Below the pieces are notes generated by a model that was given only the letters and a program-made list of their open reading frames with translations, made no database searches and was not told the DNA's origin. The translations under genes and the position numbers were made by a program. From an uncultured Armatimonadetes bacterium (GTDB lineage Bacteria; Armatimonadota; UBA5829; DTJY01), in contig OY970325.1 of NCBI GenBank assembly GCA_963717145.1, positions 4,704,001-4,768,000 on the forward strand: a stretch of DNA of 64,000 nt. The letters run 5' to 3'. Of this stretch, positions 19,308 to 57,334 are shown in pieces; position 1 is the first letter of the stretch, and every line of letters starts with the position of its first letter.

Positions 19308-21224
19308 TCAATCCCTCCGCTGTCTCAAGAACCAAGATCTTAGTCCCCGTCCGGTCTGCCTTGTATCCTCGGCTAGGCTTGCGGACAGCCGCAGCAACAT
19401 TGCCACGGTCTGCGTATGCATCTCGGCCATCTTCTCGACCTCCTGAATGGAAAGACCCTTGGTGGCGACCAGATAGGCCGAGTTATAGACTTCCTTCATG
19501 CATTGCAGACCGACCTCATCGCTCTCTTCCAAGACTGACAATAGCCGTATCACTTCGTTTCCGGAATTGAGATACAGCGTCCAGCCGGACCCCTTCTGCC
19601 CCATCCGTCCGCTGAGTGCAGCCTCGAACAACTCTCGGAGCAGATCGGGGATGTCGGGATCGTCACCGAGTTCCTCTAATAACCGGCCAGCCGCAGGCCT
19701 ATCGCTACGCACCAGCAGGGATGGGATAGAGACCGGTTTGAAGCTCACTGCTTTGGCCACTATGTCCATGTCGGCATAACGCCCGATCAAGGCCTCCAGG
19801 GTGCCCGGGGGGACTGAGTCAAAGAGAGCATCCGCAGCCTCATCGATCATCTTTGCCCGCAGTCCGCGCTCTCCTTCGGCATACTTCTCGATGAACGCCC
19901 GATCGATCTTCTCCTCAGCGTCAATCACAGGAACCCCATTCGCCGCAAAGAGGAGCTGATGCTGTCGGCTTTCGACCCCGCCGGAATGGAAGTAGATCGT
20001 CTTCTCACCCCTCGGGACGCGTCTTGAAGCTCGTTCGAGATAGACAGGAATAGTGGTCTTTCCGGAGTCGGAGTCGAACTGCACATGGTTCTTCACCATG
20101 CCAAAGAAATGATCATCCTCCAACGCACCCATTTTCACGGCAAGCTCATGTGCCCTGAGAATCGCATTGAATCGCGATGGCTCAGATATGGCCAGTTCGG
20201 TGATGAAACCGGCAAGTCGCTCTCCGATCAGCGCTTGGGCTCTCTGGAATCTCGTGTTGCGGACCACGCTCTCACGGCTGGTCGTAACGTCCAGTTCGGA
20301 TGTTTCGATCACGCCTCCTACGAATCTGGCCCAATCCGGCAGCAGTTCGCGCTCTTTTCCTATATACATCCTGGAGACGTAGAGTTCCAAAGCCGGGGGT
20401 TCCCCGGTTCCAGATTGCGGGATGAAGAGAGCGCCGCCTATATCGAAGCCATCCGCTCTCCTATCCAGAGGAATGACCTCCATCGGCGGCTGGTGGAAAC
20501 GATTGGCAATGTAGTCGGCGCACTCCATGGTCGATCCCCTGCTGTACCATGGAGCTGTCTGAGCGTTCACGGGCAAAGGCTTGTCACCGATGTAGATCGG
20601 GAATTCGATGAAGTCGGCATAACGCCGTACCAACTCGATGACGTGATCCGGGCTCGTGAATCCGTCGGTTGTGCTCTTCACATCAAGGATGATTGTGCTG
20701 CCGATCGGAAGGCCTGGGGTCTTCTGCAGAGTGTATTCTGCGCCGCCATCACATCTCCATGTGAAACCTGTGCTATCACCTCTGAAAGATCGTGTGCGGA
20801 TCTCGACAGACTCTGCTATCACGAAGGCGGAGAGTAGGCCCATGCCGAAGCGCCCAATCAGCCGCCGTGCCTCCTCCCGATTCTCCTGTTCCAACACCTT
20901 ACGGAACTCAGCCGTTCCACTTCTGCCTACAGTCGACAAGTAGTCCATGATCTCGGCCTCGGTCATACCTGCGCCGTTATCTCGGATCACGAGAAGATCA
21001 TTGCCCGTATCACACTCGATGCCTATGCGCAAGTCCTGTGGACAACTCGGATCAGTCAACTGCCGGTTGACAAGTGAATCGTTGGCATTCTGGATCAACT
21101 CACGGATGGCGACGGATCTGTCGGAATAGAGGTGTTGTCCGAGGGTCTTGATGATCCCGGGCAGGTAGATGCCTATCTGGCTGCGTTTGACACCTTCCTC
21201 AGACGATGGATCCAGTGAAGACAT
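19308..21224 (-). CDS. HtpG/Hsp90 paralog 1 (638 aa)
   Basis: ATG 21224 with AGGAGG; LYSD..VAIRELIQNANDS, DNGAGM, IGRFGMG and middle-domain TSRE motifs. Confidence 0.9.
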   Translation of the reverse strand: MSSLDPSSEEGVKRSQIGIYLPGIIKTLGQHLYSDRSVAIRELIQNANDSLVNRQLTDPSCPQDLRIGIECDTGNDLLVIRDNGAGMTEAEIMDYLSTVGRSGTAEFRKVLEQENREEARRLIGRFGMGLLSAFVIAESVEIRTRSFRGDSTGFTWRCDGGAEYTLQKTPGLPIGSTIILDVKSTTDGFTSPDHVIELVRRYADFIEFPIYIGDKPLPVNAQTAPWYSRGSTMECADYIANRFHQPPMEVIPLDRRADGFDIGGALFIPQSGTGEPPALELYVSRMYIGKERELLPDWARFVGGVIETSELDVTTSRESVVRNTRFQRAQALIGERLAGFITELAISEPSRFNAILRAHELAVKMGALEDDHFFGMVKNHVQFDSDSGKTTIPVYLERASRRVPRGEKTIYFHSGGVESRQHQLLFAANGVPVIDAEEKIDRAFIEKYAEGERGLRAKMIDEAADALFDSVPPGTLEALIGRYADMDIVAKAVSFKPVSIPSLLVRSDRPAAGRLLEELGDDPDIPDLLRELFEAALSGRMGQKGSGWTLYLNSGNEVIRLLSVLEESDEVGLQCMKEVYNSAYLVATKGLSIQEVEKMAEMHTQTVAMLLRLSASLAEDTRQTGRGLRSWFLRQRRD

Positions 21225-21363
21225 CGCTGTTCCTCCTGGTGAGTTAGTATGCTCAGTGCAACAGTTCAAGGCAGAGCGTAGGACACCTAGTGGTTGCGAT
21301 GGTCATTAGCTCTACTCTAACGATGACCGTAGTATGAAGATGCCACCGCCTACCCGTCGATAT

Positions 21364-21392
21364 AGTATACCACGGCATAACTGGTTGCGCAA
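21364..21392 (-). promoter_or_regulatory. Predicted sigma70 promoter of the Hsp90-SIR2 operon
   Basis: TTGCGC, 17 nt, TATACT, with an extended -10 TG. Confidence 0.65.
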
Positions 21393-21400
21393 GTCCCCGA

Positions 21401-22867
21401 GTAACAGTTCACGCTTGGGGATAACGAGTTTGATCAGGCAGGGAAGAGGACAGACTTGCCTGCGAGCAGTTGCCTGCATGATTCGAGCATGTCCAGACCC
21501 CTGACGTGCCATGTGCCAAACAGACTCATGAGCGTCATCTTTGTCTCGGAACCCTTCGCGCTTCGTGTGCCTCCGCATACCTTGCGGGCGATCACACACG
21601 GCCTCAGCGCTCGTTCTGCGCCATTGTTGTCCGACGGTACTTCCGGGTACTCTACGAACATGAACAACTCGTGCAAGCGATCTATGAATCTCTTTGCCAG
21701 CGTCTGCTGTGGAGCATCTGAGCCGACATACGGACCTGAGAGCGCCTCTACCTCTTCCTCGAAGAGTACTCGCTTCCACTTGCGAACCTCCGCCTTCTTG
21801 CTCCGGAACTCCTTTGCCCGATCGTAAACACCCTTCACCGCATCCGCCCATGCGATGACGCCCGTGTCGTCCGCGTTCCTCTCCTTCAGTTTGTGCAGAT
21901 CCCTGGCCAGATGTGCCCAGCATATCTGGCGGTCTGCAACTACCGGGTTGTATCCGGCATAGCAATCCGTTACCACTACCCCTTCGTAGTCGCCGCCTAT
22001 CGTTTCCTTCGGGATCTCTCCACTCCGACTCCGCCGGTAGATGAAGTATCGCACGTTCTTAGTGGAGAAGGTCCAGATGTATCCGTTCAGCCCATCCTCT
22101 CTCCAGCCCGTCTCGTCTGCGTTTATGTATGGGCTTCCACGTACAAGCGAGAGTAGCCGCTCTTTCTCTTTTTTGCCACAGTCTGCCACCGTGTGCAATA
22201 TCTCGCTTATCTCTCCCACAGAGAGCTGAAGACCATACAGAGCCTTCAGCAATCCCTGTATCGTCCGCTTTGTCATGCGACCTACCGTCGAAAGATACGA
22301 TATCAGGCTCATCAGGTTCACGCCTACCCGATGCTTGCCTACAACCTGGCCGGAAAGGTCAACCTTCGGCACATGACTCTTGCCACAGTATCCGCATCTT
22401 CTGGCGATGAACCTGTGCTCGACTACGTCCACAGGCACGATGGGGATGTCGATGACTTGGCGGAGTCTCTTTACCGTGCCCCCTGTGAGCGCTCGGCCGC
22501 AGTCCGGACACTTCGAGTGCGCGTGCTCGACTACACGGGTGGGTGTCTCCCGCCTGCGCACGAACGACTTCTTGCGCTTCTTTCGTTCAGCTGCCCGGCG
22601 CTCTTTGCGGTTCGGCTTCACCCAGTCAGGCACGGATGGGGAACTGCCATCACCGCCGGAAAGCCTGGCGCGAAGGTCTTCGTTCTCCTTCTCCAGGTCG
22701 CCGATACGCGCCACGAGTTGGGGAACTAGACCTTCCAACTGGCTGACCCTGGCCTCAAGCTCCTCGTATGTCGGCTTGGATTGCTCGCTCACACTCCTTG
22801 GTTCGAGACGCTCCCAGCAGGTTCCTTCTTCTTACAGACAAAATAATCCCTAAGCCTGAACTGTTAC
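21401..22867 (-). mobile_element. IS66-family element (single-ORF, ISBst12-like), copy 1 of a tandem dimer
   Basis: 1467 bp; terminal inverted repeats gtaacagttcacgcttgggg / gtaacagttcaggcttaggg; preceded by gtccccga (21393-21400). Confidence 0.9.
21434..22792 (-). CDS. IS66 transposase
   Basis: Coiled coil, zinc finger CPDC...CGYC, and ADETGW, CWAHL and NNGAERALR motifs. Confidence 0.92.
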   Translation of the reverse strand: MSEQSKPTYEELEARVSQLEGLVPQLVARIGDLEKENEDLRARLSGGDGSSPSVPDWVKPNRKERRAAERKKRKKSFVRRRETPTRVVEHAHSKCPDCGRALTGGTVKRLRQVIDIPIVPVDVVEHRFIARRCGYCGKSHVPKVDLSGQVVGKHRVGVNLMSLISYLSTVGRMTKRTIQGLLKALYGLQLSVGEISEILHTVADCGKKEKERLLSLVRGSPYINADETGWREDGLNGYIWTFSTKNVRYFIYRRSRSGEIPKETIGGDYEGVVVTDCYAGYNPVVADRQICWAHLARDLHKLKERNADDTGVIAWADAVKGVYDRAKEFRSKKAEVRKWKRVLFEEEVEALSGPYVGSDAPQQTLAKRFIDRLHELFMFVEYPEVPSDNNGAERALRPCVIARKVCGGTRSAKGSETKMTLMSLFGTWHVRGLDMLESCRQLLAGKSVLFPA

Positions 22868-22875
22868 CCCTGAAA

Positions 22876-24342
22876 GTAACAGTTCACGCTTGGGGATAAC
22901 GAGTTTGATCAGGCAGGGAAGAGGACAGACTTGCCTGCGAGCAGTTGCCTGCATGATTCGAGCATGTCCAGACCCCTGACGTGCCATGTGCCAAACAGAC
23001 TCATGAGCGTCATCTTTGTCTCGGAACCCTTCGCGCTTCGTGTGCCTCCGCATACCTTGCGGGCGATCACACACGGCCTCAGCGCTCGTTCTGCGCCATT
23101 GTTGTCCGACGGTACTTCCGGGTACTCTACGAACATGAACAACTCGTGCAAGCGATCTATGAATCTCTTTGCCAGCGTCTGCTGTGGAGCATCTGAGCCG
23201 ACATACGGACCTGAGAGCGCCTCTACCTCTTCCTCGAAGAGTACTCGCTTCCACTTGCGAACCTCCGCCTTCTTGCTCCGGAACTCCTTTGCCCGATCGT
23301 AAACACCCTTCACCGCATCCGCCCATGCGATGACGCCCGTGTCGTCCGCGTTCCTCTCCTTCAGTTTGTGCAGATCCCTGGCCAGATGTGCCCAGCATAT
23401 CTGGCGGTCTGCAACTACCGGGTTGTATCCGGCATAGCAATCCGTTACCACTACCCCTTCGTAGTCGCCGCCTATCGTTTCCTTCGGGATCTCTCCACTC
23501 CGACTCCGCCGGTAGATGAAGTATCGCACGTTCTTAGTGGAGAAGGTCCAGATGTATCCGTTCAGCCCATCCTCTCTCCAGCCCGTCTCGTCTGCGTTTA
23601 TGTATGGGCTTCCACGTACAAGCGAGAGTAGCCGCTCTTTCTCTTTTTTGCCACAGTCTGCCACCGTGTGCAATATCTCGCTTATCTCTCCCACAGAGAG
23701 CTGAAGACCATACAGAGCCTTCAGCAATCCCTGTATCGTCCGCTTTGTCATGCGACCTACCGTCGAAAGATACGATATCAGGCTCATCAGGTTCACGCCT
23801 ACCCGATGCTTGCCTACAACCTGGCCGGAAAGGTCAACCTTCGGCACATGACTCTTGCCACAGTATCCGCATCTTCTGGCGATGAACCTGTGCTCGACTA
23901 CGTCCACAGGCACGATGGGGATGTCGATGACTTGGCGGAGTCTCTTTACCGTGCCCCCTGTGAGCGCTCGGCCGCAGTCCGGACACTTCGAGTGCGCGTG
24001 CTCGACTACACGGGTGGGTGTCTCCCGCCTGCGCACGAACGACTTCTTGCGCTTCTTTCGTTCAGCTGCCCGGCGCTCTTTGCGGTTCGGCTTCACCCAG
24101 TCAGGCACGGATGGGGAACTGCCATCACCGCCGGAAAGCCTGGCGCGAAGGTCTTCGTTCTCCTTCTCCAGGTCGCCGATACGCGCCACGAGTTGGGGAA
24201 CTAGACCTTCCAACTGGCTGACCCTGGCCTCAAGCTCCTCGTATGTCGGCTTGGATTGCTCGCTCACACTCCTTGGTTCGAGACGCTCCCAGCAGGTTCC
24301 TTCTTCTTACAGACAAAATAATCCCTAAGCCTGAACTGTTAC
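22876..24342 (-). mobile_element. IS66-family element, copy 2 of the tandem dimer
   Basis: 1467 bp with the same protein; separated from copy 1 by 8 bp (ccctgaaa); followed by gtccccga (24343-24350). Confidence 0.9.
22909..24267 (-). CDS. IS66 transposase
   Basis: Translation identical to 21434..22792. Confidence 0.92.
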   Translation of the reverse strand: MSEQSKPTYEELEARVSQLEGLVPQLVARIGDLEKENEDLRARLSGGDGSSPSVPDWVKPNRKERRAAERKKRKKSFVRRRETPTRVVEHAHSKCPDCGRALTGGTVKRLRQVIDIPIVPVDVVEHRFIARRCGYCGKSHVPKVDLSGQVVGKHRVGVNLMSLISYLSTVGRMTKRTIQGLLKALYGLQLSVGEISEILHTVADCGKKEKERLLSLVRGSPYINADETGWREDGLNGYIWTFSTKNVRYFIYRRSRSGEIPKETIGGDYEGVVVTDCYAGYNPVVADRQICWAHLARDLHKLKERNADDTGVIAWADAVKGVYDRAKEFRSKKAEVRKWKRVLFEEEVEALSGPYVGSDAPQQTLAKRFIDRLHELFMFVEYPEVPSDNNGAERALRPCVIARKVCGGTRSAKGSETKMTLMSLFGTWHVRGLDMLESCRQLLAGKSVLFPA

Positions 24343-24347
24343 GTCCC

Positions 24348-25709
24348 CGAATTGCTTCACGAACGATGTTACCGAAACGGAAACGTTGCCTCAGATAAGA
24401 ATGTTACCGAAACTGAGGCATGGAGAAGATGACAACTGCATCCGTAAGAGAAGTCGTGAGGCGCAAACGCAAAGAATATGGCAAAGCCACCAAATCGGAG
24501 AAGAAGCTGGTATTGAGTGAAGTCCAGGGATTGACCGGTTACCACAGGAAGTCGCTGGTGAGGCTGTTCGCGAAAGGAGTTCCACCAGCGAGGAGTCCAG
24601 TGAGACGCGCAAGGAAGTCGAAATACGAGCCGATAGCCCACAAGCTGAAGACACTCTGGGCTGCGAGTTTCTACGCGTGCGGTAAGCGTCTGCAGCCGTT
24701 TCTGACTGAGTTTCTACCCATACTGGAGTCATTCGGGGAGATAACGGTTACACCAGAAGAAGAGAGGCTGCTTAACTCGATCAGCGCGTCGAGCATCGAC
24801 AGGTTGATGAAGAAGGAGCGGTCTGCCCTATCGCTAACAGGGAGGACCTTAACAAAGCCGGGGACACTGCTTCGGTCTCAGATCCCGGTGAGGACGTTTG
24901 CCGACTGGGATGAAGCTGAGCCTGGGTTCTTCGAGATGGACTTGGTGGGTCATTGCGGAGGTGACGGGAGCGGAGAGTTCCTGTATACTTTGACTATGAC
25001 TGATGTAGCGACCGGATGGGTAGCGCTTGATGGAATGAAAGGCCGAGGGGAGCACGGAACCGTGCTTGCGGTGCAGTCCGCGTCCAAGAGCGCACCGTTT
25101 GCAGTCAGAGGCATAGATACCGACAACGGCGGCGAGTTCATCAACCATCACATGAACAAGTACTGTCGAGCGCACAGGATCACGTTTACGCGCAGTCGGC
25201 CTTACAAGAAGAACGATCAATGTCATGTAGAGCAGAAGAACTGGAGCGTAGTCCGGCAGTTTATAGGTTACCGGCGATTCGAGACGGACGAGCAGCTTGC
25301 GGTACTAAAGGCGATATATCCGCTGATCGTGGCGTATCACAACTTCTGTCAGCCCATGATGCGTCTTAAAGAAAAGGAGCGGATTGGGAGTAAAGTGATC
25401 AAACGCTATGAGCCTGCGATGACGCCGTACCGCAAGCTGATAAGTGTTGAAGGATGGCTTGACGATGAAGCAAAGGATCGCCTCGATAAAGAACGTAGAG
25501 CGACGAACCCGGTGGAGCTACTAAGACGCATCCACAGGCTATCATCAAAGCTTGACAGGATGCCGAATAAAGACAGATCGAAAGCGAGCAAGGCGCGGCC
25601 CTGAGCGGCGATCAAGAGCCGATCTGACATACTTGAACACACTACTTGGTAACATTATCAATGACGCAACGAATGGCGTTTCGGTAACAAAGCTAAATGA
25701 GGCAACACG
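24348..25709 (+). mobile_element. 1362-bp IS with integrase-core (rve) DDE transposase, copy 1; family unassigned (ISNCY-like)
   Basis: Ends defined by identity with 54715..56076; 5-bp target duplication gtccc; imperfect ends cgaattgcttca / cgtgttgcctca; repeated subterminal tgttaccgaaac boxes. Confidence 0.9.
24420..25604 (+). CDS. Integrase-core DDE transposase
   Basis: N-terminal HTH-like TGYHRK; EMDLVGH, DTDNGGEF and HVEQKN motifs. Confidence 0.9.
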   Translation: MEKMTTASVREVVRRKRKEYGKATKSEKKLVLSEVQGLTGYHRKSLVRLFAKGVPPARSPVRRARKSKYEPIAHKLKTLWAASFYACGKRLQPFLTEFLPILESFGEITVTPEEERLLNSISASSIDRLMKKERSALSLTGRTLTKPGTLLRSQIPVRTFADWDEAEPGFFEMDLVGHCGGDGSGEFLYTLTMTDVATGWVALDGMKGRGEHGTVLAVQSASKSAPFAVRGIDTDNGGEFINHHMNKYCRAHRITFTRSRPYKKNDQCHVEQKNWSVVRQFIGYRRFETDEQLAVLKAIYPLIVAYHNFCQPMMRLKEKERIGSKVIKRYEPAMTPYRKLISVEGWLDDEAKDRLDKERRATNPVELLRRIHRLSSKLDRMPNKDRSKASKARP

Positions 25710-25875
25710 GTCCCGCCGACAACGTGCCATGCTGAGAGCCATGGTGGACGAGGGGTCGGCGCTGGGAGGAAGAAACTGGGGACAAGGGACTCGGGATAGG
25801 CACAATAACTCAGGAGCGACGACAACTGTGCAGGTGACGCAAGTCATGCCACTGCTTATCCTCCGTGCGCATCGT

Positions 25876-51684: not shown

Positions 51685-54645
51685 TTACTCTCCCTCATCC
51701 TTCAAGCAGCAGCGTTTGTACTTCTTCCCGCTTCCGCAGGGACACGGGTCGTTCCGGCCGACTTTGGCGCGCGTCTTCATCGGCGCCAGCTTCCTCGGGC
51801 GGGGCAGCCCCTCGTCGAAGTCGCTGTACGGCCCCGGCTCGTCGAACCCCTGGGCCGGAGACGGCGCACCCATCGGTGTCAACTCGCTCGTGTTCATGCT
51901 CACGTTTCGATACGGATTCCGATATGGCTCGTTGACGACCTGCACCTGCACGCGGAACATCCACCGAACGATCTCGTCCTGGATGCCCTGCTGCATCTGG
52001 TCGAACATCTCGAAGCCTTCCTTCTTGTAGGCCATCAGCGGGTCGATCTGCGCATATCCACGCAGGCCGATGCCCTCCAGAAGGTAGTCCATCCCGTCCA
52101 GGTGCTCGAGCCACTTGTTGTCGATCGCGCGGAAGGCGATCTGGCGCTCCAGGTCGCGCATCAACTCCGAGCCGATCTGCTTCTCGCGGTCCTCGTAGGC
52201 CTTCTCCGCAAGCTCGGTGAGCAGGTCCTCGATCTCGAGCCGCCTCTTGCCGTGCAAATCTGTGGCACTGATGTAGAGCGAGAGTGGGAATATCTCGTTC
52301 AGCATCTCGAACAGCGTGTCGGTATCCCAATCGCTCGAACTCTCGGGGCAGTACGTGGCGATCGTGTCGAGCACCGTCTGGTTCAGATAGCTCGTGATCG
52401 TCGGCTTGAGGTCCCTGCCCTCCAGGATCTTCCTGCGCTCGCCGTAGATGATCTCGCGCTGGACGTTCATCACGTCGTCGTACTGGAGGACCTGCTTTCG
52501 GATGCCGAAGTGGTAGGTCTCCATCTTCTTCTGCGTGCGCTCGATCATCCTCGAGAGCAGCTTGGCGTCCATCGCCATCTCCTCCGGCCACGACGCGAGC
52601 CACGGGCTCTGCATCCGATCGCCGAACACCCGCCATAGCTCATCTTCCAGCGAGACATAGAACCGCGACATGCCCGGGTCGCCCTGACGACCGGCACGTC
52701 CTCTGAGCTGATGGTCGATTCGCCGGCTCTCATGCCGCTCGCTGCCCAAAATCGCCAGACCGCCGGTCCCGACGACCACATCGGCCTCGGGATTCCGGCC
52801 GGTCGAGCCCTCGGGCTTCCCGCCGAGGATGATGTCGACGCCACGGCCCGCCATGTTGGTGGCGATCGTCACCGCGCCGAGTCCTCCGGCGTCTGCGATG
52901 ATCTCCGCCTCGCGCTCGTGCTGTTTCGCATTCAAAACGTTATGCCCGATGCCCTGCGAGAGGTTCTCGAGCAGTCTCTCGATCTCCTCAGGCGCATCGA
53001 GTTCCATGATCTTCGCGAGCCGCTTCACGTTATCGTCCCTGAGCATATCGAGCGATGCGCCAACCGACCGCGCGACCTCGGACAGCTTGCTGAGGGTAAG
53101 CTCGCCGAACTTCAGGTTCAGAAGCTGATTGAACTGCTTCTTCATTTCGCCGTCGAAATTCTTCGACTCATCCATCATCGAGCGGAGGACGAAAATCGCC
53201 GCCAGAAGCTGCAGTTTGTCGGCTTCGATCCGCCCGCTCAGGCGTTCCGATGTCTCGATAGAGCGAGTGCCGACCAGTATCGGCTGGAGCTTGCAGTGGA
53301 GCTTCAGGATCTCGAGCGTCAGCCCGCGGAGCTTCGCCTCTTCGGACTTGTAGATCACGTCCGGGTAGTCGGCGCGGACCATCGGCATGTTCGTCGGGAC
53401 GACGACCACGTCGAGGCCGTAGATCTTGCGGAACTCCTCTTCCTCGGTCTTGGCCGTACCGGTCATGCCGCCGAGCTTAGTGTAGAGGCGGTAATAATTC
53501 TGGTGAGTGATCTTCGCGAGCGTCTGGCTCTCGTGCTCGATCTTGACGCCTTCCTTCGCCTCGATTGCCTGGTGGAGGCCGTCGCTGAGCCGGCGTCCGA
53601 ACATCAGGCGGCCGGTGAACTCATCGACGAGGATGACCTGATTGTCGCGCACGACGTAATCTATGTCGCTCTTGAACATCGTCCGCGCCTTGAGGGCCGC
53701 GTTGGCGTGGTGCATCAGGTCCACATCCTCGGTGAGGTTGTCGACGCCGAGCGCCTCTTCGACGCGCCGGGTGCCGTCCTCGGTCAGCATCGCGGTCTTG
53801 GCCTTCTCATCGATGGTGTAGTCGCGCTCGTGCATCAGGCGCGCCACGACCCTGTCCATCTTGTAGTACATCTCGTTCGATTCGGCGGCCTGCCCCGAGA
53901 TGATCAACGGGACGCGCGCTTCGTCGACCAGGATCGAGTCCACCTCGTCGACGATCGCGTAGTTCAACTCGCGCTGAACGAGTTCCTCCTTGGAATGGGC
54001 CATGTTGTCGCGCAGGTAGTCGAACCCGAAGACGTGGTTCGTGCCATAGGTGATGTCGGCCAGATAGGATTCCTGCTTGTCACATCGTTTCAGGTTGCGG
54101 TAGGTCGGCTCGTCCTCGTTGAAGTAGTCCGGGTCGTAGAGGTACGATGCCTCCATCTCGCCGGTCTCGATATTCGACCCCTGGATCGCGCCGACGCTCA
54201 TCCCGAGGAAGTTATAGACGCCGCCCATCCACTGAGCGTGGAATTTGCCGAGGTAGTCGTTGACCGTGATCAGGTGCGCGCCCTTGCCTTCGAGGGCGTT
54301 CAGATACAGCGGGAGAGTAGCCGTAAGGGTCTTTCCCTCACCGGTTCTCATCTCCGCGATACGCCCCTCATGGAGCACCATGCCGCCGATCATCTGCACG
54401 TCGAAATGCCTCTGCCCGATGACGCGTCTGGCCGCCTCCCTGACGGTCGCGAACGCCTCCGGGAGGATGTCATCGAGCGTCTCTTCGTTGGCGAGTCGGC
54501 CCTTGAACTCTTCCGTCTTGGCCCGAAGTTGGTCGTTCGAGAGCGCCTCCATCTCCGGTTCGAGGTCGTTGATCTTCTCCGCGACCTTCCGGAACCGCCC
54601 GACTTCGCGCTCGTTGCTGCTGAAAATCCAGTTTAGAACATTCAT
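51685..54645 (-). CDS. secA: Preprotein translocase subunit SecA
   Basis: MRTGEGKT, DEVDSIL, ATNMAGRGVDI, QLRGRAGRQGDPG and SEC-C GRNDPCPCGSGKKYKRCC motifs. Confidence 0.98.
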   Translation of the reverse strand: MNVLNWIFSSNEREVGRFRKVAEKINDLEPEMEALSNDQLRAKTEEFKGRLANEETLDDILPEAFATVREAARRVIGQRHFDVQMIGGMVLHEGRIAEMRTGEGKTLTATLPLYLNALEGKGAHLITVNDYLGKFHAQWMGGVYNFLGMSVGAIQGSNIETGEMEASYLYDPDYFNEDEPTYRNLKRCDKQESYLADITYGTNHVFGFDYLRDNMAHSKEELVQRELNYAIVDEVDSILVDEARVPLIISGQAAESNEMYYKMDRVVARLMHERDYTIDEKAKTAMLTEDGTRRVEEALGVDNLTEDVDLMHHANAALKARTMFKSDIDYVVRDNQVILVDEFTGRLMFGRRLSDGLHQAIEAKEGVKIEHESQTLAKITHQNYYRLYTKLGGMTGTAKTEEEEFRKIYGLDVVVVPTNMPMVRADYPDVIYKSEEAKLRGLTLEILKLHCKLQPILVGTRSIETSERLSGRIEADKLQLLAAIFVLRSMMDESKNFDGEMKKQFNQLLNLKFGELTLSKLSEVARSVGASLDMLRDDNVKRLAKIMELDAPEEIERLLENLSQGIGHNVLNAKQHEREAEIIADAGGLGAVTIATNMAGRGVDIILGGKPEGSTGRNPEADVVVGTGGLAILGSERHESRRIDHQLRGRAGRQGDPGMSRFYVSLEDELWRVFGDRMQSPWLASWPEEMAMDAKLLSRMIERTQKKMETYHFGIRKQVLQYDDVMNVQREIIYGERRKILEGRDLKPTITSYLNQTVLDTIATYCPESSSDWDTDTLFEMLNEIFPLSLYISATDLHGKRRLEIEDLLTELAEKAYEDREKQIGSELMRDLERQIAFRAIDNKWLEHLDGMDYLLEGIGLRGYAQIDPLMAYKKEGFEMFDQMQQGIQDEIVRWMFRVQVQVVNEPYRNPYRNVSMNTSELTPMGAPSPAQGFDEPGPYSDFDEGLPRPRKLAPMKTRAKVGRNDPCPCGSGKKYKRCCLKDEGE

Positions 54646-54680: not shown

Positions 54681-54709
54681 ATTCTACCACTTGAGGGCCA
54701 TATTGTCAA
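54681..54709 (-). promoter_or_regulatory. Predicted sigma70 promoter of secA
   Basis: TTGACA, 17 nt, TAGAAT, with an extended -10 TG. Confidence 0.8.
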
Positions 54710-54714
54710 AGCCG

Positions 54715-56076
54715 CGAATTGCTTCACGAACGATGTTACCGAAACGGAAACGTTGCCTCAGATAAGAATGTTACCGAAACTGAGGCATGGAGAAGATGAC
54801 AACTGCATCCGTAAGAGAAGTCGTGAGGCGCAAACGCAAAGAATATGGCAAAGCCACCAAATCGGAGAAGAAGCTGGTATTGAGTGAAGTCCAGGGATTG
54901 ACCGGTTACCACAGGAAGTCGCTGGTGAGGCTGTTCGCGAAAGGAGTTCCACCAGCGAGGAGTCCAGTGAGACGCGCAAGGAAGTCGAAATACGAGCCGA
55001 TAGCCCACAAGCTGAAGACACTCTGGGCTGCGAGTTTCTACGCGTGCGGTAAGCGTCTGCAGCCGTTTCTGACTGAGTTTCTACCCATACTGGAGTCATT
55101 CGGGGAGATAACGGTTACACCAGAAGAAGAGAGGCTGCTTAACTCGATCAGCGCGTCGAGCATCGACAGGTTGATGAAGAAGGAGCGGTCTGCCCTATCG
55201 CTAACAGGGAGGACCTTAACAAAGCCGGGGACACTGCTTCGGTCTCAGATCCCGGTGAGGACGTTTGCCAACTGGGATGAAGCTGAGCCTGGGTTCTTCG
55301 AGATGGACTTGGTGGGTCATTGCGGAGGTGACGGGAGCGGAGAGTTCCTGTATACTTTGACTATGACTGATGTAGCGACCGGATGGGTAGCGCTTGATGG
55401 AATGAAAGGCCGAGGGGAGCACGGAACCGTGCTTGCGGTGCAGTCCGCGTCCAAGAGCGCACCGTTTGCAGTCAGAGGCATAGATACCGACAACGGCGGC
55501 GAGTTCATCAACCATCACATGAACAAGTACTGTCGAGCGCACAGGATCACGTTTACGCGCAGTCGGCCTTACAAGAAGAACGATCAATGTCATGTAGAGC
55601 AGAAGAACTGGAGCGTAGTCCGGCAGTTTATAGGTTACCGGCGATTCGAGACGGACGAGCAGCTTGCGGTACTAAAGGCGATATATCCGCTGATCGTGGC
55701 GTATCACAACTTCTGTCAGCCCATGATGCGTCTTAAAGAAAAGGAGCGGATTGGGAGTAAAGTGATCAAACGCTATGAGCCTGCGATGACGCCGTACCGC
55801 AAGCTGATAAGTGTTGAAGGATGGCTTGACGATGAAGCAAAGGATCGCCTCGATAAAGAACGTAGAGCGACGAACCCGGTGGAGCTACTAAGACGCATCC
55901 ACAGGCTATCATCAAAGCTTGACAGGATGCCGAACAAAGACAGATCGAAAGCGAGCAAGGCGCGGCCCTGAGCGGCGATCAAGAGCCGATCTGACATACT
56001 TGAACACACTACTTGGTAACATTATCAATGACGCAACGAATGGCGTTTCGGTAACAAAGTTAAATGAGGCAACACG
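54715..56076 (+). mobile_element. 1362-bp integrase-core IS, copy 2
   Basis: 5-bp target duplication agccg (54710-54714 and 56077-56081); differs from copy 1 at least at 55270, 55935 and 56060. Confidence 0.92.
54787..55971 (+). CDS. Integrase-core DDE transposase
   Basis: Same protein as 24420..25604 except one D-to-N change (FADWD to FANWD). Confidence 0.9.
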   Translation: MEKMTTASVREVVRRKRKEYGKATKSEKKLVLSEVQGLTGYHRKSLVRLFAKGVPPARSPVRRARKSKYEPIAHKLKTLWAASFYACGKRLQPFLTEFLPILESFGEITVTPEEERLLNSISASSIDRLMKKERSALSLTGRTLTKPGTLLRSQIPVRTFANWDEAEPGFFEMDLVGHCGGDGSGEFLYTLTMTDVATGWVALDGMKGRGEHGTVLAVQSASKSAPFAVRGIDTDNGGEFINHHMNKYCRAHRITFTRSRPYKKNDQCHVEQKNWSVVRQFIGYRRFETDEQLAVLKAIYPLIVAYHNFCQPMMRLKEKERIGSKVIKRYEPAMTPYRKLISVEGWLDDEAKDRLDKERRATNPVELLRRIHRLSSKLDRMPNKDRSKASKARP

Positions 56077-56306
56077 AGCCGACCGCCTGTGCCACATGCT
56101 TATCTACGCCTGGTGGTACCGTCCGGTTCCACCGTGTGCCGGGCGACTGAAGTCACGGCTACAAGAGCACGAAGTGTCCCTGCGGACACTGGAGACAGGG
56201 GACACCAGTCCGCGGAGGTGGCCTTCGTGCACTTGTTGCCGCGGTTTCAACCGCCAGGGACCTGATGCCGTACCTGTACTATATGACACGCGAGCCCGAC
56301 GTTTGG

Positions 56307-56334
56307 TTGACATTACCCAGAGCGGATGTATAAT
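56307..56334 (+). promoter_or_regulatory. Predicted sigma70 promoter
   Basis: TTGACA, 16 nt, TATAAT upstream of the ANT(6)-family gene. Confidence 0.7.
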
Positions 56335-56371
56335 GGCTGAGAAGCCGTGCAGGAAGTGTGAGGTAGGGAAG

Positions 56372-57334
56372 ATGCGATCTGACTACGAGAATGCAATCAT
56401 CCGGAAGTTCATCGAGTTTGGGGAGAGGAATGATCCGGTCAGGGCCATGGTGCTGACCAGCTCCCTCTGCAATCCCAATGCGCCTGCCGACATACTCTCG
56501 GACTTTGATATCGAGATCTTTTTCGAGGACCCAACGCCCTTTGCTGAGAGAGACGACTGGATCGAAGAGATGGGTTTCGGCCCCATCATGGCTCTCTGGC
56601 ACTTTCCGAACGAGTGGGACTGGGAGCCGGGCAACGGCCGCCACTGGATGCCCATGTGCTACTTCCAGGATGGCACGAAGATGGATATCTGTCTGGGATA
56701 CCTGGACGACCTGCGCGCGATCGCCAAGGCGGATTCTCTACCCAAGGGCTATGATGTCGGCTACGAGGTGCTGCTGGACAAAGACGGCGTGACCCAGGGC
56801 ATGAAGCCCCCGACCTTCACGGCATTCATCCTGAAGCCTCCCTCCGAACCTCAGTATCAATCGAGAATCGAGTCGTTTTGGATGGATTCCACTTATGCTG
56901 CGAAATACCTCTGGAGGGACGACATCGTGGCCGTGAAGTTCAGGTTGGGCTTCCCGGACAACAAGTTCGGCGGTCTGGCAGGTTACGTCCGCGAGATGCT
57001 CGAGTGGTCAGTCGGAGCGGACAGCGGCTGGACGTGGAAACCGAAGTCATGCGGCAGACACCTGGACAAAGCGCTGGATGCCGAGATGCGCCGGGAGATG
57101 ATAGCCACCTATGCCGGCGGAGACATGGATGAGCTGTGGGAGTCGCTTTTCCGCACGACCGCGCTCTTCCGCAAGGCAGCCATCAAGGTCGGGGAGCACC
57201 TGGGATACACCTATCCCCATGACCTCGACCGCCGGGTCTCTGCCTTCCACCAGACGCTCAGAGATCTGGACAAGTCTGCCACGAGAGAGGAACTGGCCGA
57301 CCTCCTGTCTGCAAGTTACGAGAGTCGCCGCTAG
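56372..57334 (+). CDS. Aminoglycoside 6-adenylyltransferase (AadK/ANT(6)) family protein
   Basis: VRAMVLTSS..NPNAPADILSDFDIE, DGTKMD, VLLDKDG, FW....AKYLWR and LGYTYP motifs. Confidence 0.8.
   Translation: MRSDYENAIIRKFIEFGERNDPVRAMVLTSSLCNPNAPADILSDFDIEIFFEDPTPFAERDDWIEEMGFGPIMALWHFPNEWDWEPGNGRHWMPMCYFQDGTKMDICLGYLDDLRAIAKADSLPKGYDVGYEVLLDKDGVTQGMKPPTFTAFILKPPSEPQYQSRIESFWMDSTYAAKYLWRDDIVAVKFRLGFPDNKFGGLAGYVREMLEWSVGADSGWTWKPKSCGRHLDKALDAEMRREMIATYAGGDMDELWESLFRTTALFRKAAIKVGEHLGYTYPHDLDRRVSAFHQTLRDLDKSATREELADLLSASYESRR

Follow-up and report, generated by a model that had tools for sequence, protein, structure and literature searches.

In this study we have analyzed an insertion sequence (IS) that occurs twice in a 64-kb stretch of DNA (the window) lying in a single 5.37-Mb contig (OY970325.1) of an uncultured Armatimonadetes bacterium. 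Full-length copies of this IS sit, throughout the genome, immediately upstream of sequences that look like promoters of the housekeeping sigma factor: a 5-bp staggered cut is made directly upstream of the -35 box, 27–30 nt upstream of the -10 hexamer, and the insertion always turns the left end of the element to the promoter, so that the transposase and the host gene diverge from each other and the core promoter is left untouched. Promoter targeting is, moreover, common to a clade of 40–66% identical transposases found in many phyla. We consider that this is probably an active, single-gene IS whose rve/DDE transposase selects housekeeping-sigma promoters, most likely while these are occupied by polymerase. 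The original prediction had arrived at promoter targeting from the two window copies and had proposed gathering every copy and relative and checking for a promoter at a fixed offset. The outcome was positive, with such a promoter beside 22/22 copies in the genome and 69/75 flanks of relatives; the pattern it had named as a refutation, other copies showing no promoter at this offset, is not what we found, and its interpretation is supported.

The genome contains 22 full-length copies with ~100% identity, plus one relative with 69% identity. Both flanks were taken from every copy, using for the first window copy the restored flank described below, and a -10 box was accepted if it matched TATAAT in at least four of six positions, A2 and T6 included, at an offset of 26–31 from the IS end. 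All 22 copies passed, with offsets of 28 (11 copies), 29 (seven), 30 (three), and 27 (one). Read on the strand leading away from the left IS end, the first three positions of the -35 box were T in 22/22, T in 17/22, and G in 20/22 copies, the complete TTG being present at offset 5, right after the duplication, in 17/22, and a TGn preceded the -10 box in 13/22. The random background, estimated at 100,000 genome positions, was 3.8% for the -10 box, 1.1% for TTG, and 0.056% for both. It is evident too that the definition of the IS-end motif does not by itself create the promoter signal, since chance matches to this motif elsewhere in the genome satisfied the -10 criterion in 3/32 cases and had the TTG in 0/32. 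In all 22 copies the left, transposase-proximal end was the one toward the promoter, which faced away from the transposase. Perfect 5-bp duplications, all differing in sequence, were found around 17 of the 22 copies, one more matched in four of five positions, and four had unmatched flanks.

Within the window, copy 2 (54715..56076, forward strand) is 1362 bp long and bounded by the target duplication agccg (left copy at 54710..54714, right copy at 56077..56081). The left duplication directly abuts a -35 hexamer on the reverse strand (TTGACA, 54704..54709), followed after 17 nt by an extended -10 box (TGG-TAGAAT, 54681..54689, with the hexamer at 54681-54686), and the open reading frame (ORF) of secA (51685..54645, reverse strand; SecA_DEAD match, E 7e-122) starts 35 nt past TAGAAT. 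A genome of the same family (G023) has a homologous region upstream of secA without the IS, where the flanks are contiguous and the pentamer is single, and where TGTCAA and ATTCTACCA (i.e., TTGACA and TGGTAGAAT) are kept and the 17-nt spacer has diverged. This empty site confirms the IS boundaries and the duplication and shows that the promoter predates the insertion, and it provides a small phylogenetic footprint for both hexamers. The Hsp90 flank described next had no match in G023, and the match of the PEPCK flank in that genome is limited to the coding part, beside a contig end.

Copy 1 (24348..25709, forward strand; transposase ORF at 24420-25604) has gtccc at both sides (24343-24347 and 25710-25714), and is now split from its promoter by a tandem dimer of an IS66-family element on the reverse strand (21401..24342), inserted precisely where the IS joins its duplication. 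This dimer, 2942 bp in total, comprises two units of 1467 bp and an 8-bp spacer (CCCTGAAA), with 1469/1475 positions identical per 1475-bp unit, and is flanked by the 8-bp repeat gtccccga. The dimer must have arrived after copy 1, because gtccccga consists of the older 5-bp duplication gtccc and the first 3 nt of the IS. Once the dimer is removed, the original left flank (21364..21397, reverse strand) reads gtccc (21393-21397), TTGCGC (21387-21392), a 17-nt spacer, and TGG-TATACT (-10 hexamer at 21364-21369), upstream of an Hsp90-family (HtpG-like) gene (19308..21269, reverse strand). Reading the window thus confirmed what had been predicted for both copies, from the coordinates of the two 1362-bp elements with their differing duplications to the abutting -35 boxes of 17-nt-spaced, extended -10 promoters in the same orientation, including the flank of copy 1 as restored by removal of the dimer. 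It had also been claimed that the transposase points away from the host gene and leaves the core promoter intact; this is correct too, and the hexamers are already present at the empty secA site of G023.

The genes found behind these promoters are unrelated to each other. At most sites an ORF of at least 60 aa starts ~25–100 nt past the -10 box, and the Pfam matches downstream include, besides SecA and the Hsp90-family protein, ThyX, isocitrate/isopropylmalate dehydrogenase (Iso_dh), an HNH protein, cofactor-independent phosphoglycerate mutase (iPGM), the E2 subunit of 2-oxoacid dehydrogenase, a HAD hydrolase, a polysaccharide deacetylase, glutamate dehydrogenase, a flavin reductase, PEPCK, an MFS transporter, a MEDS-domain protein, a BpsA-like protein, and a C39-like peptidase. 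Three sites without a convincing ORF have tRNA genes 12–49 nt downstream. The flanking motifs, predicted as they are, look like real promoters.

Homologues of the transposase number in the thousands, mostly on short metagenome contigs, and those with a name come from Armatimonadota and Bipolaricaulota. A scan of species-representative genomes confirmed at least 568 relatives among at least 588 pattern matches, and 80 loci with 40–66% identity were used. Their left ends were placed by the terminal motif CGnnTTGCCTCA, common to both ends of the relatives, which gave 70 distinct flanks. Of these 63 were retained, the other seven being internal second copies or matches away from the terminus; loci near a contig end or without the terminal motif were left uncounted (15 entries). 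In these 63 flanks TAnnnT was found at offset 28 in 36, at 29 in 11, at 27 in nine, and at 30 in eight, compared to 0–5 at any other offset, and TTG was at offset 5 in 23. We then added the copies of three genomes, one of the Chloroflexia (nine copies), one of the Acidobacteriota (six), and a second one of the Chloroflexia (G003, 11 copies with a left end), pooling 75 distinct flanks. The -10 criterion was passed by 69 of the 75 (offset 27 in nine, 28 in 46, 29 in 13, and 30 in one), and six control windows placed on the same flanks gave 6–10/75.

The passing flanks come from 14 taxon groups, with labels taken from record titles, among them Chloroflexota (41/47), Acidobacteriota (6/6), Actinomycetota (6/6), Atribacterota (3/3), and Armatimonadota (2/2), together with several proteobacterial classes and others. 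In every case the promoter is at the left, transposase-proximal end. The conserved -10 positions are A2 and T6, which are the signature of sigma recognition. A TGn precedes the -10 box in 22 of the 69 passing flanks, and TTG at offset 5 is present in just 27 of the pooled 75. The second Chloroflexia genome has an unconserved -35 position and TATAAT or TATACT at offset 28 in 8/11 copies. A 43% identical element of Mycobacterium shows TTGCAT and TAAGCT at the expected offsets, and the plasmid of Mycobacterium riyadhense carries one full copy only. A separate observation concerns the relative in an Acidobacteriota genome (G002), where an inverted copy of the left-end 60 nt lies ~220 bp beyond the assumed end, so the element is longer and has extra sequence downstream of its transposase gene.

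As to how the target may be recognized, transcription starts, in the textbook geometry, ~7 nt past the -10 box. If this applies here, the duplication would fall at about -41 to -37, at the upstream edge of the DNA bound by sigma region 4, and also beside the positions of the alpha C-terminal domains and of class II activators. We propose that the complex of transposase and DNA recognizes the promoter while the RNA polymerase holoenzyme occupies it, either by contact with sigma region 4 or a neighboring polymerase surface, or through the DNA bend made by the polymerase; reading of both hexamers by the transposase itself is judged less likely. A polymerase-occupied promoter is favored because the signal follows the whole promoter and not one word, given that some hosts have the -10 box without the -35 box and that, in the genome studied here, the -35 box is fixed and the -10 box floats over 27–30 nt. 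Guidance by promoter-bound RNA polymerase is something that we infer. The orientation would probably be set by a constant asymmetry of the ends, base 3 being A or C at the left and T at the right in 18/18 pairs with clear ends (this IS included). For the element, the advantage would be a site found in every bacterium and in large numbers, where insertion does the host no harm. We are evenly divided about the broader proposal, namely that a widespread transposase clade, extending over 14 taxon groups from Armatimonadota to Proteobacteria, would use the promoter-bound holoenzyme as a target-selecting cofactor, docking on a universally conserved surface at sigma region 4 and cutting at about -41/-37.

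Several observations weigh against recognition of the occupied promoter, and some of them would fit direct reading of the DNA. This alternative, which seems to us unlikely, would have the transposase domains that bind TTGCCTCA in the IS ends recognize a -35-like TTGNCN and perhaps an A/T-rich -10, without polymerase, the target resembling the end of the IS. In this genome the first base of the -35 box is T at all 22 sites and the third is G at 20, compared to 63% for the T and 46% for TTG at any spacer of 16–18 among 198 crudely predicted extended -10 host promoters, so the transposase of this IS may itself read part of the -35 box. The tips of the IS carry TTGC[C/T]TCA 4 nt inside each end, which mirrors the target TTG 5 nt from the junction and leaves room for recognition of targets resembling the element's own ends; the distance from the IS to the -35 box is also fixed here, and that to the -10 box varies over 27–30 nt. 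However, a mere preference for a -35 word fails to explain the pattern, since 5.8% of the 33,279 genomic TTG[AC][AC] sites have a -10 box of at least four of six matches at a spacer of 16–18, compared to 14/14 IS sites with that word. Among the relatives the TTG is found in far fewer flanks than the -10 box (27/75 against 69/75), with the copies of G003 doing without a -35 box altogether. Sigma is what reads another hexamer at a distance of 17 nt across a spacer of flexible length, and nothing sigma-like is seen in the predicted fold of the transposase. A further unfavorable point is that six of the 75 relatives' flanks fail the -10 criterion; an opposite-strand control was passed by 40/75 flanks and is uninformative, as TATAAT is nearly self-complementary. 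Finally, four more distant and longer ISNCY-type relatives (from S. meliloti, M. japonicum, L. biflexa, and B. ottawaense) have no promoter at the offset. Within the larger, unclassified family, promoter targeting thus seems to be the property of one clade, with a single locus representing each distant type.

Bent targets are favored by many DDE enzymes, and a preference for the bent, under-wound, or transiently melted DNA of promoters, with no specific protein contact, would fit a signal that tracks promoter geometry and not one fixed sequence. Placement to the single base and strict orientation at 22/22 plus 69/75 sites are hard to obtain from shape alone, though, and we regard this explanation as improbable; it also overlaps in part with the recognition of an occupied promoter, where the bend is made by the bound polymerase. 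It is hardly credible, in our opinion, that insertion is untargeted and harmless upstream copies have survived, or that the IS carries the promoter along with it. Insertions between genes tend to be better tolerated, but the 22 near-identical copies imply a recent spread with little time for selection, and one exact base position in one orientation is beyond what selection would achieve. A traveling promoter is contradicted by the duplication standing between the IS and the promoter, by spacers and downstream genes that all differ, and by the promoter already present at the empty site of G023. Overall, the recognition of promoters occupied by polymerase is the reading that we prefer. Co-folding of the transposase with region 4 of the host sigma-A, which was run without controls, gave a median score of 0.26 against a mark of 0.32, a result that weighs neither in favor of binding nor against it.

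The transposase gene of copy 2 (54787..55971, forward strand) is the single ORF of the IS and encodes 394 aa with an rve/DDE core. Its match to Pfam rve (38.2 bits, cut-off 32.6) is the one Pfam match above threshold, and D174, D235, and E271 are invariant in an alignment of 90 sequences, the second D and the E lying 36 residues apart; V278, seven residues past E271, is nearly invariant and is followed by an invariant R279. The AlphaFold model (mean pLDDT 85.8) has N-terminal helical domains, an RNase H core, a small beta-barrel, and C-terminal helices, i.e., the typical integrase/transposase domains, and its best Foldseek matches were the PFV and HIV integrases, IstA of IS21, and TnsB. The protein belongs to the rve/DDE superfamily and falls below the cut-off of every named IS family: it scored 46.6 bits with the NCBIfam model of IS481 (NF033577, cut-off 224) and 26.5 bits with that of IS3 (NF033516, cut-off 160), the frameshifted ORF pair of IS3 being absent, and the match to IS21 was also sub-threshold. 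A Mutator-like (p-MULT) transposase was ruled out by the rve match standing alone above threshold and by a fold that matches integrases, IstA, and TnsB.

The nearest plasmid relatives in cultured bacteria are 35–43% identical and annotated as ISNCY or as the ISNCY-like ISBj12/ISLbi1 family. The nearest named relatives are ISBj12 (Bradyrhizobium) and ISLbi1 (Leptospira biflexa), of the unclassified ISNCY, loci annotated as this family aligning by tblastn with 35–40% identity over 82–95% of the query. The ISBj12 locus has the terminus CGCATTGCCTC, similar to that of our IS, and CGCATTGCCTCG is seen at the terminus of locus L187, so that similarity to the ISBj12/ISLbi1 type, as annotated, was found in the termini too. 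The transposases of this type are longer, with 443–635 aa in the four loci inspected, the same four without a promoter at the offset. ISLbi1 has been reported to insert within coding regions (PMC2229662).

Targeted transposition is rare in bacteria, the instructive cases being Tn7, the CRISPR-associated transposons, the bridge RNAs of IS110, and the dif hunters. In yeast, Ty3 and Ty1 tether an integrase-type enzyme to the transcription initiation complex, a target that is safe and abundant. The Ty elements are a fitting analogy, although, unlike our IS, they are retroelements of eukaryotes, directed to Pol III factors, and what they integrate is cDNA. A closer bacterial precedent, which the original prediction did not name, is provided by TnGBS, the ISLre2 family, and the ISKra4 group, which insert 15–17 bp upstream of the -35 box of sigma-A promoters (PMC3942029, in part). 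Promoter targeting is called unusual among prokaryotic transposases in passages of the same paper, where contact with the initiation complex is proposed and the Ty3-TFIIIB analogy is cited (PMC3942029). Judging from those passages, these elements resemble our IS in their set orientation, in the fixed distance upstream of housekeeping-sigma promoters, and in an end asymmetry proposed to set the orientation (PMC3942029). They differ in having a Mutator-like transposase instead of an rve one and in the 15–17 bp that separate them from the -35 box, which is abutted here by the 5-bp duplication; also, members of the ISKra4 group with near-perfect inverted repeats insert in both orientations, in contrast to 22/22 in one orientation for this IS (PMC3942029, same passages).

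The ISAjo2/ISAba32-type elements of the IS1202 family, known as dif-site hunters, share with our IS a single rve DDE transposase, a target duplication of 5 bp, a second, internal end repeat, and a left end that in all cases lies against a protein-binding site, 5 bp away, according to parts of PMC10132070 and 10.1101/2022.12.17.520857. Contact with the bound host protein has also been proposed by their authors (same parts of PMC10132070 and 10.1101/2022.12.17.520857). Although the ISAjo2 type of IS1202 likewise has a 5-bp duplication and keeps its left end against the target in a single orientation, the target here is a promoter and not dif, whereas the dif hunters go to the XerC side of dif/pdif (PMC10132070, in part). 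Membership of IS1202 was rejected: the ends are CG...CG instead of TGT...ACA, and the residue seven positions past the catalytic E is V278 (followed by R279) instead of the Q of the dif-hunter transposases, which have 441–457 aa (PMC10132070, in part). In the open-access literature we found Mutator-like cases of promoter targeting, and none by an rve-type or ISNCY element.

The termini of copy 2 are CGAATTGCTTCA at the left and the reverse complement of CGTGTTGCCTCA at the right, and all 22 genomic copies have identical ends (CGAATTGC... and ...GCAACACG). Two direct copies of a bipartite repeat, TTGC[T/C]TCA ... ATGTTACCGAAAC, can be read at the left end (54715..54780, forward strand), with a matching GTTTCGGTAAC at the right end, and the left-end repeats are probably binding sites of the transposase. 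By eye, at copy 2, neither a transposase promoter in the left end nor a junction promoter formed by abutted ends was convincing. Miniature derivatives (paired ends 80–1000 bp apart with a 5-bp duplication) were not found in the genome, a BLAST search of the genome for solo IS ends gave nothing beyond the 69% relative, and no near-identical DNA was found in plasmids.

Some individual copies show particular features. Those without matching duplications are located at C1:905202, 1232065, 1424173, and 2240983, the 4/5 match being that of 4343689. GTGCT occurs on the left of 905202 and on the right of 1424173, and to the right of both 2240983 and 2674755 the 50 nt compared are the same. This suggests rearrangement through recombination between IS copies, or a repeated flank. 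In the copy at 751274-752635 the right duplication cccgg is followed by CGAATTGCCTCACG, a 14-nt match to the left terminus of the family, beyond which the resemblance to the IS ends. It may be what is left of an earlier insertion at that promoter, as in the tandem insertions of dif hunters. The 69% identical relative (C1:4942316-4943674, duplication catga) lies within the 8-bp spacer that separates two abutted IS66 ends and has TTGTAA, at an IS66 terminus, beside its left end; its target seems to have been a promoter-like site at the IS66 end nearer to the transposase.

To the right of copy 2, a listed ORF of 471 aa (55919-57334) starts inside the right end of the IS. It is a read-through artifact, because its Pfam match spans residues 157-445 only, and the gene begins well downstream of the IS. 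On the same side of the IS, the region 56100-56240 shows good conservation in G023, contains the GC-rich hairpin GTGTCCCTGCGGACAC, and is located upstream of a gene of the Adenyl_transf family (PF04439).

These results add a group with an integrase-type transposase to the few promoter-seeking transposons known in bacteria. The promoter strategy now appears in an enzyme unrelated to the Mutator-like ones, with a different position of the cut, base-pair precision, and a distribution over many phyla, and this conservation across phyla points to the recognition of something universal in the transcription initiation complex. The IS offers a one-protein system for studying how a transposase reads a site occupied by protein and a possible route to promoter-directed DNA insertion. 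For annotation, each copy can be taken as a pointer to a likely promoter, which is of use in phyla that have been little studied, Armatimonadota and Chloroflexota among them. If polymerase does act as the cofactor, these elements would be a bacterial parallel, arisen independently by convergence, to Ty3 at Pol III genes and to TnGBS, and would lend themselves to the marking of occupied promoters in nearly all bacteria.

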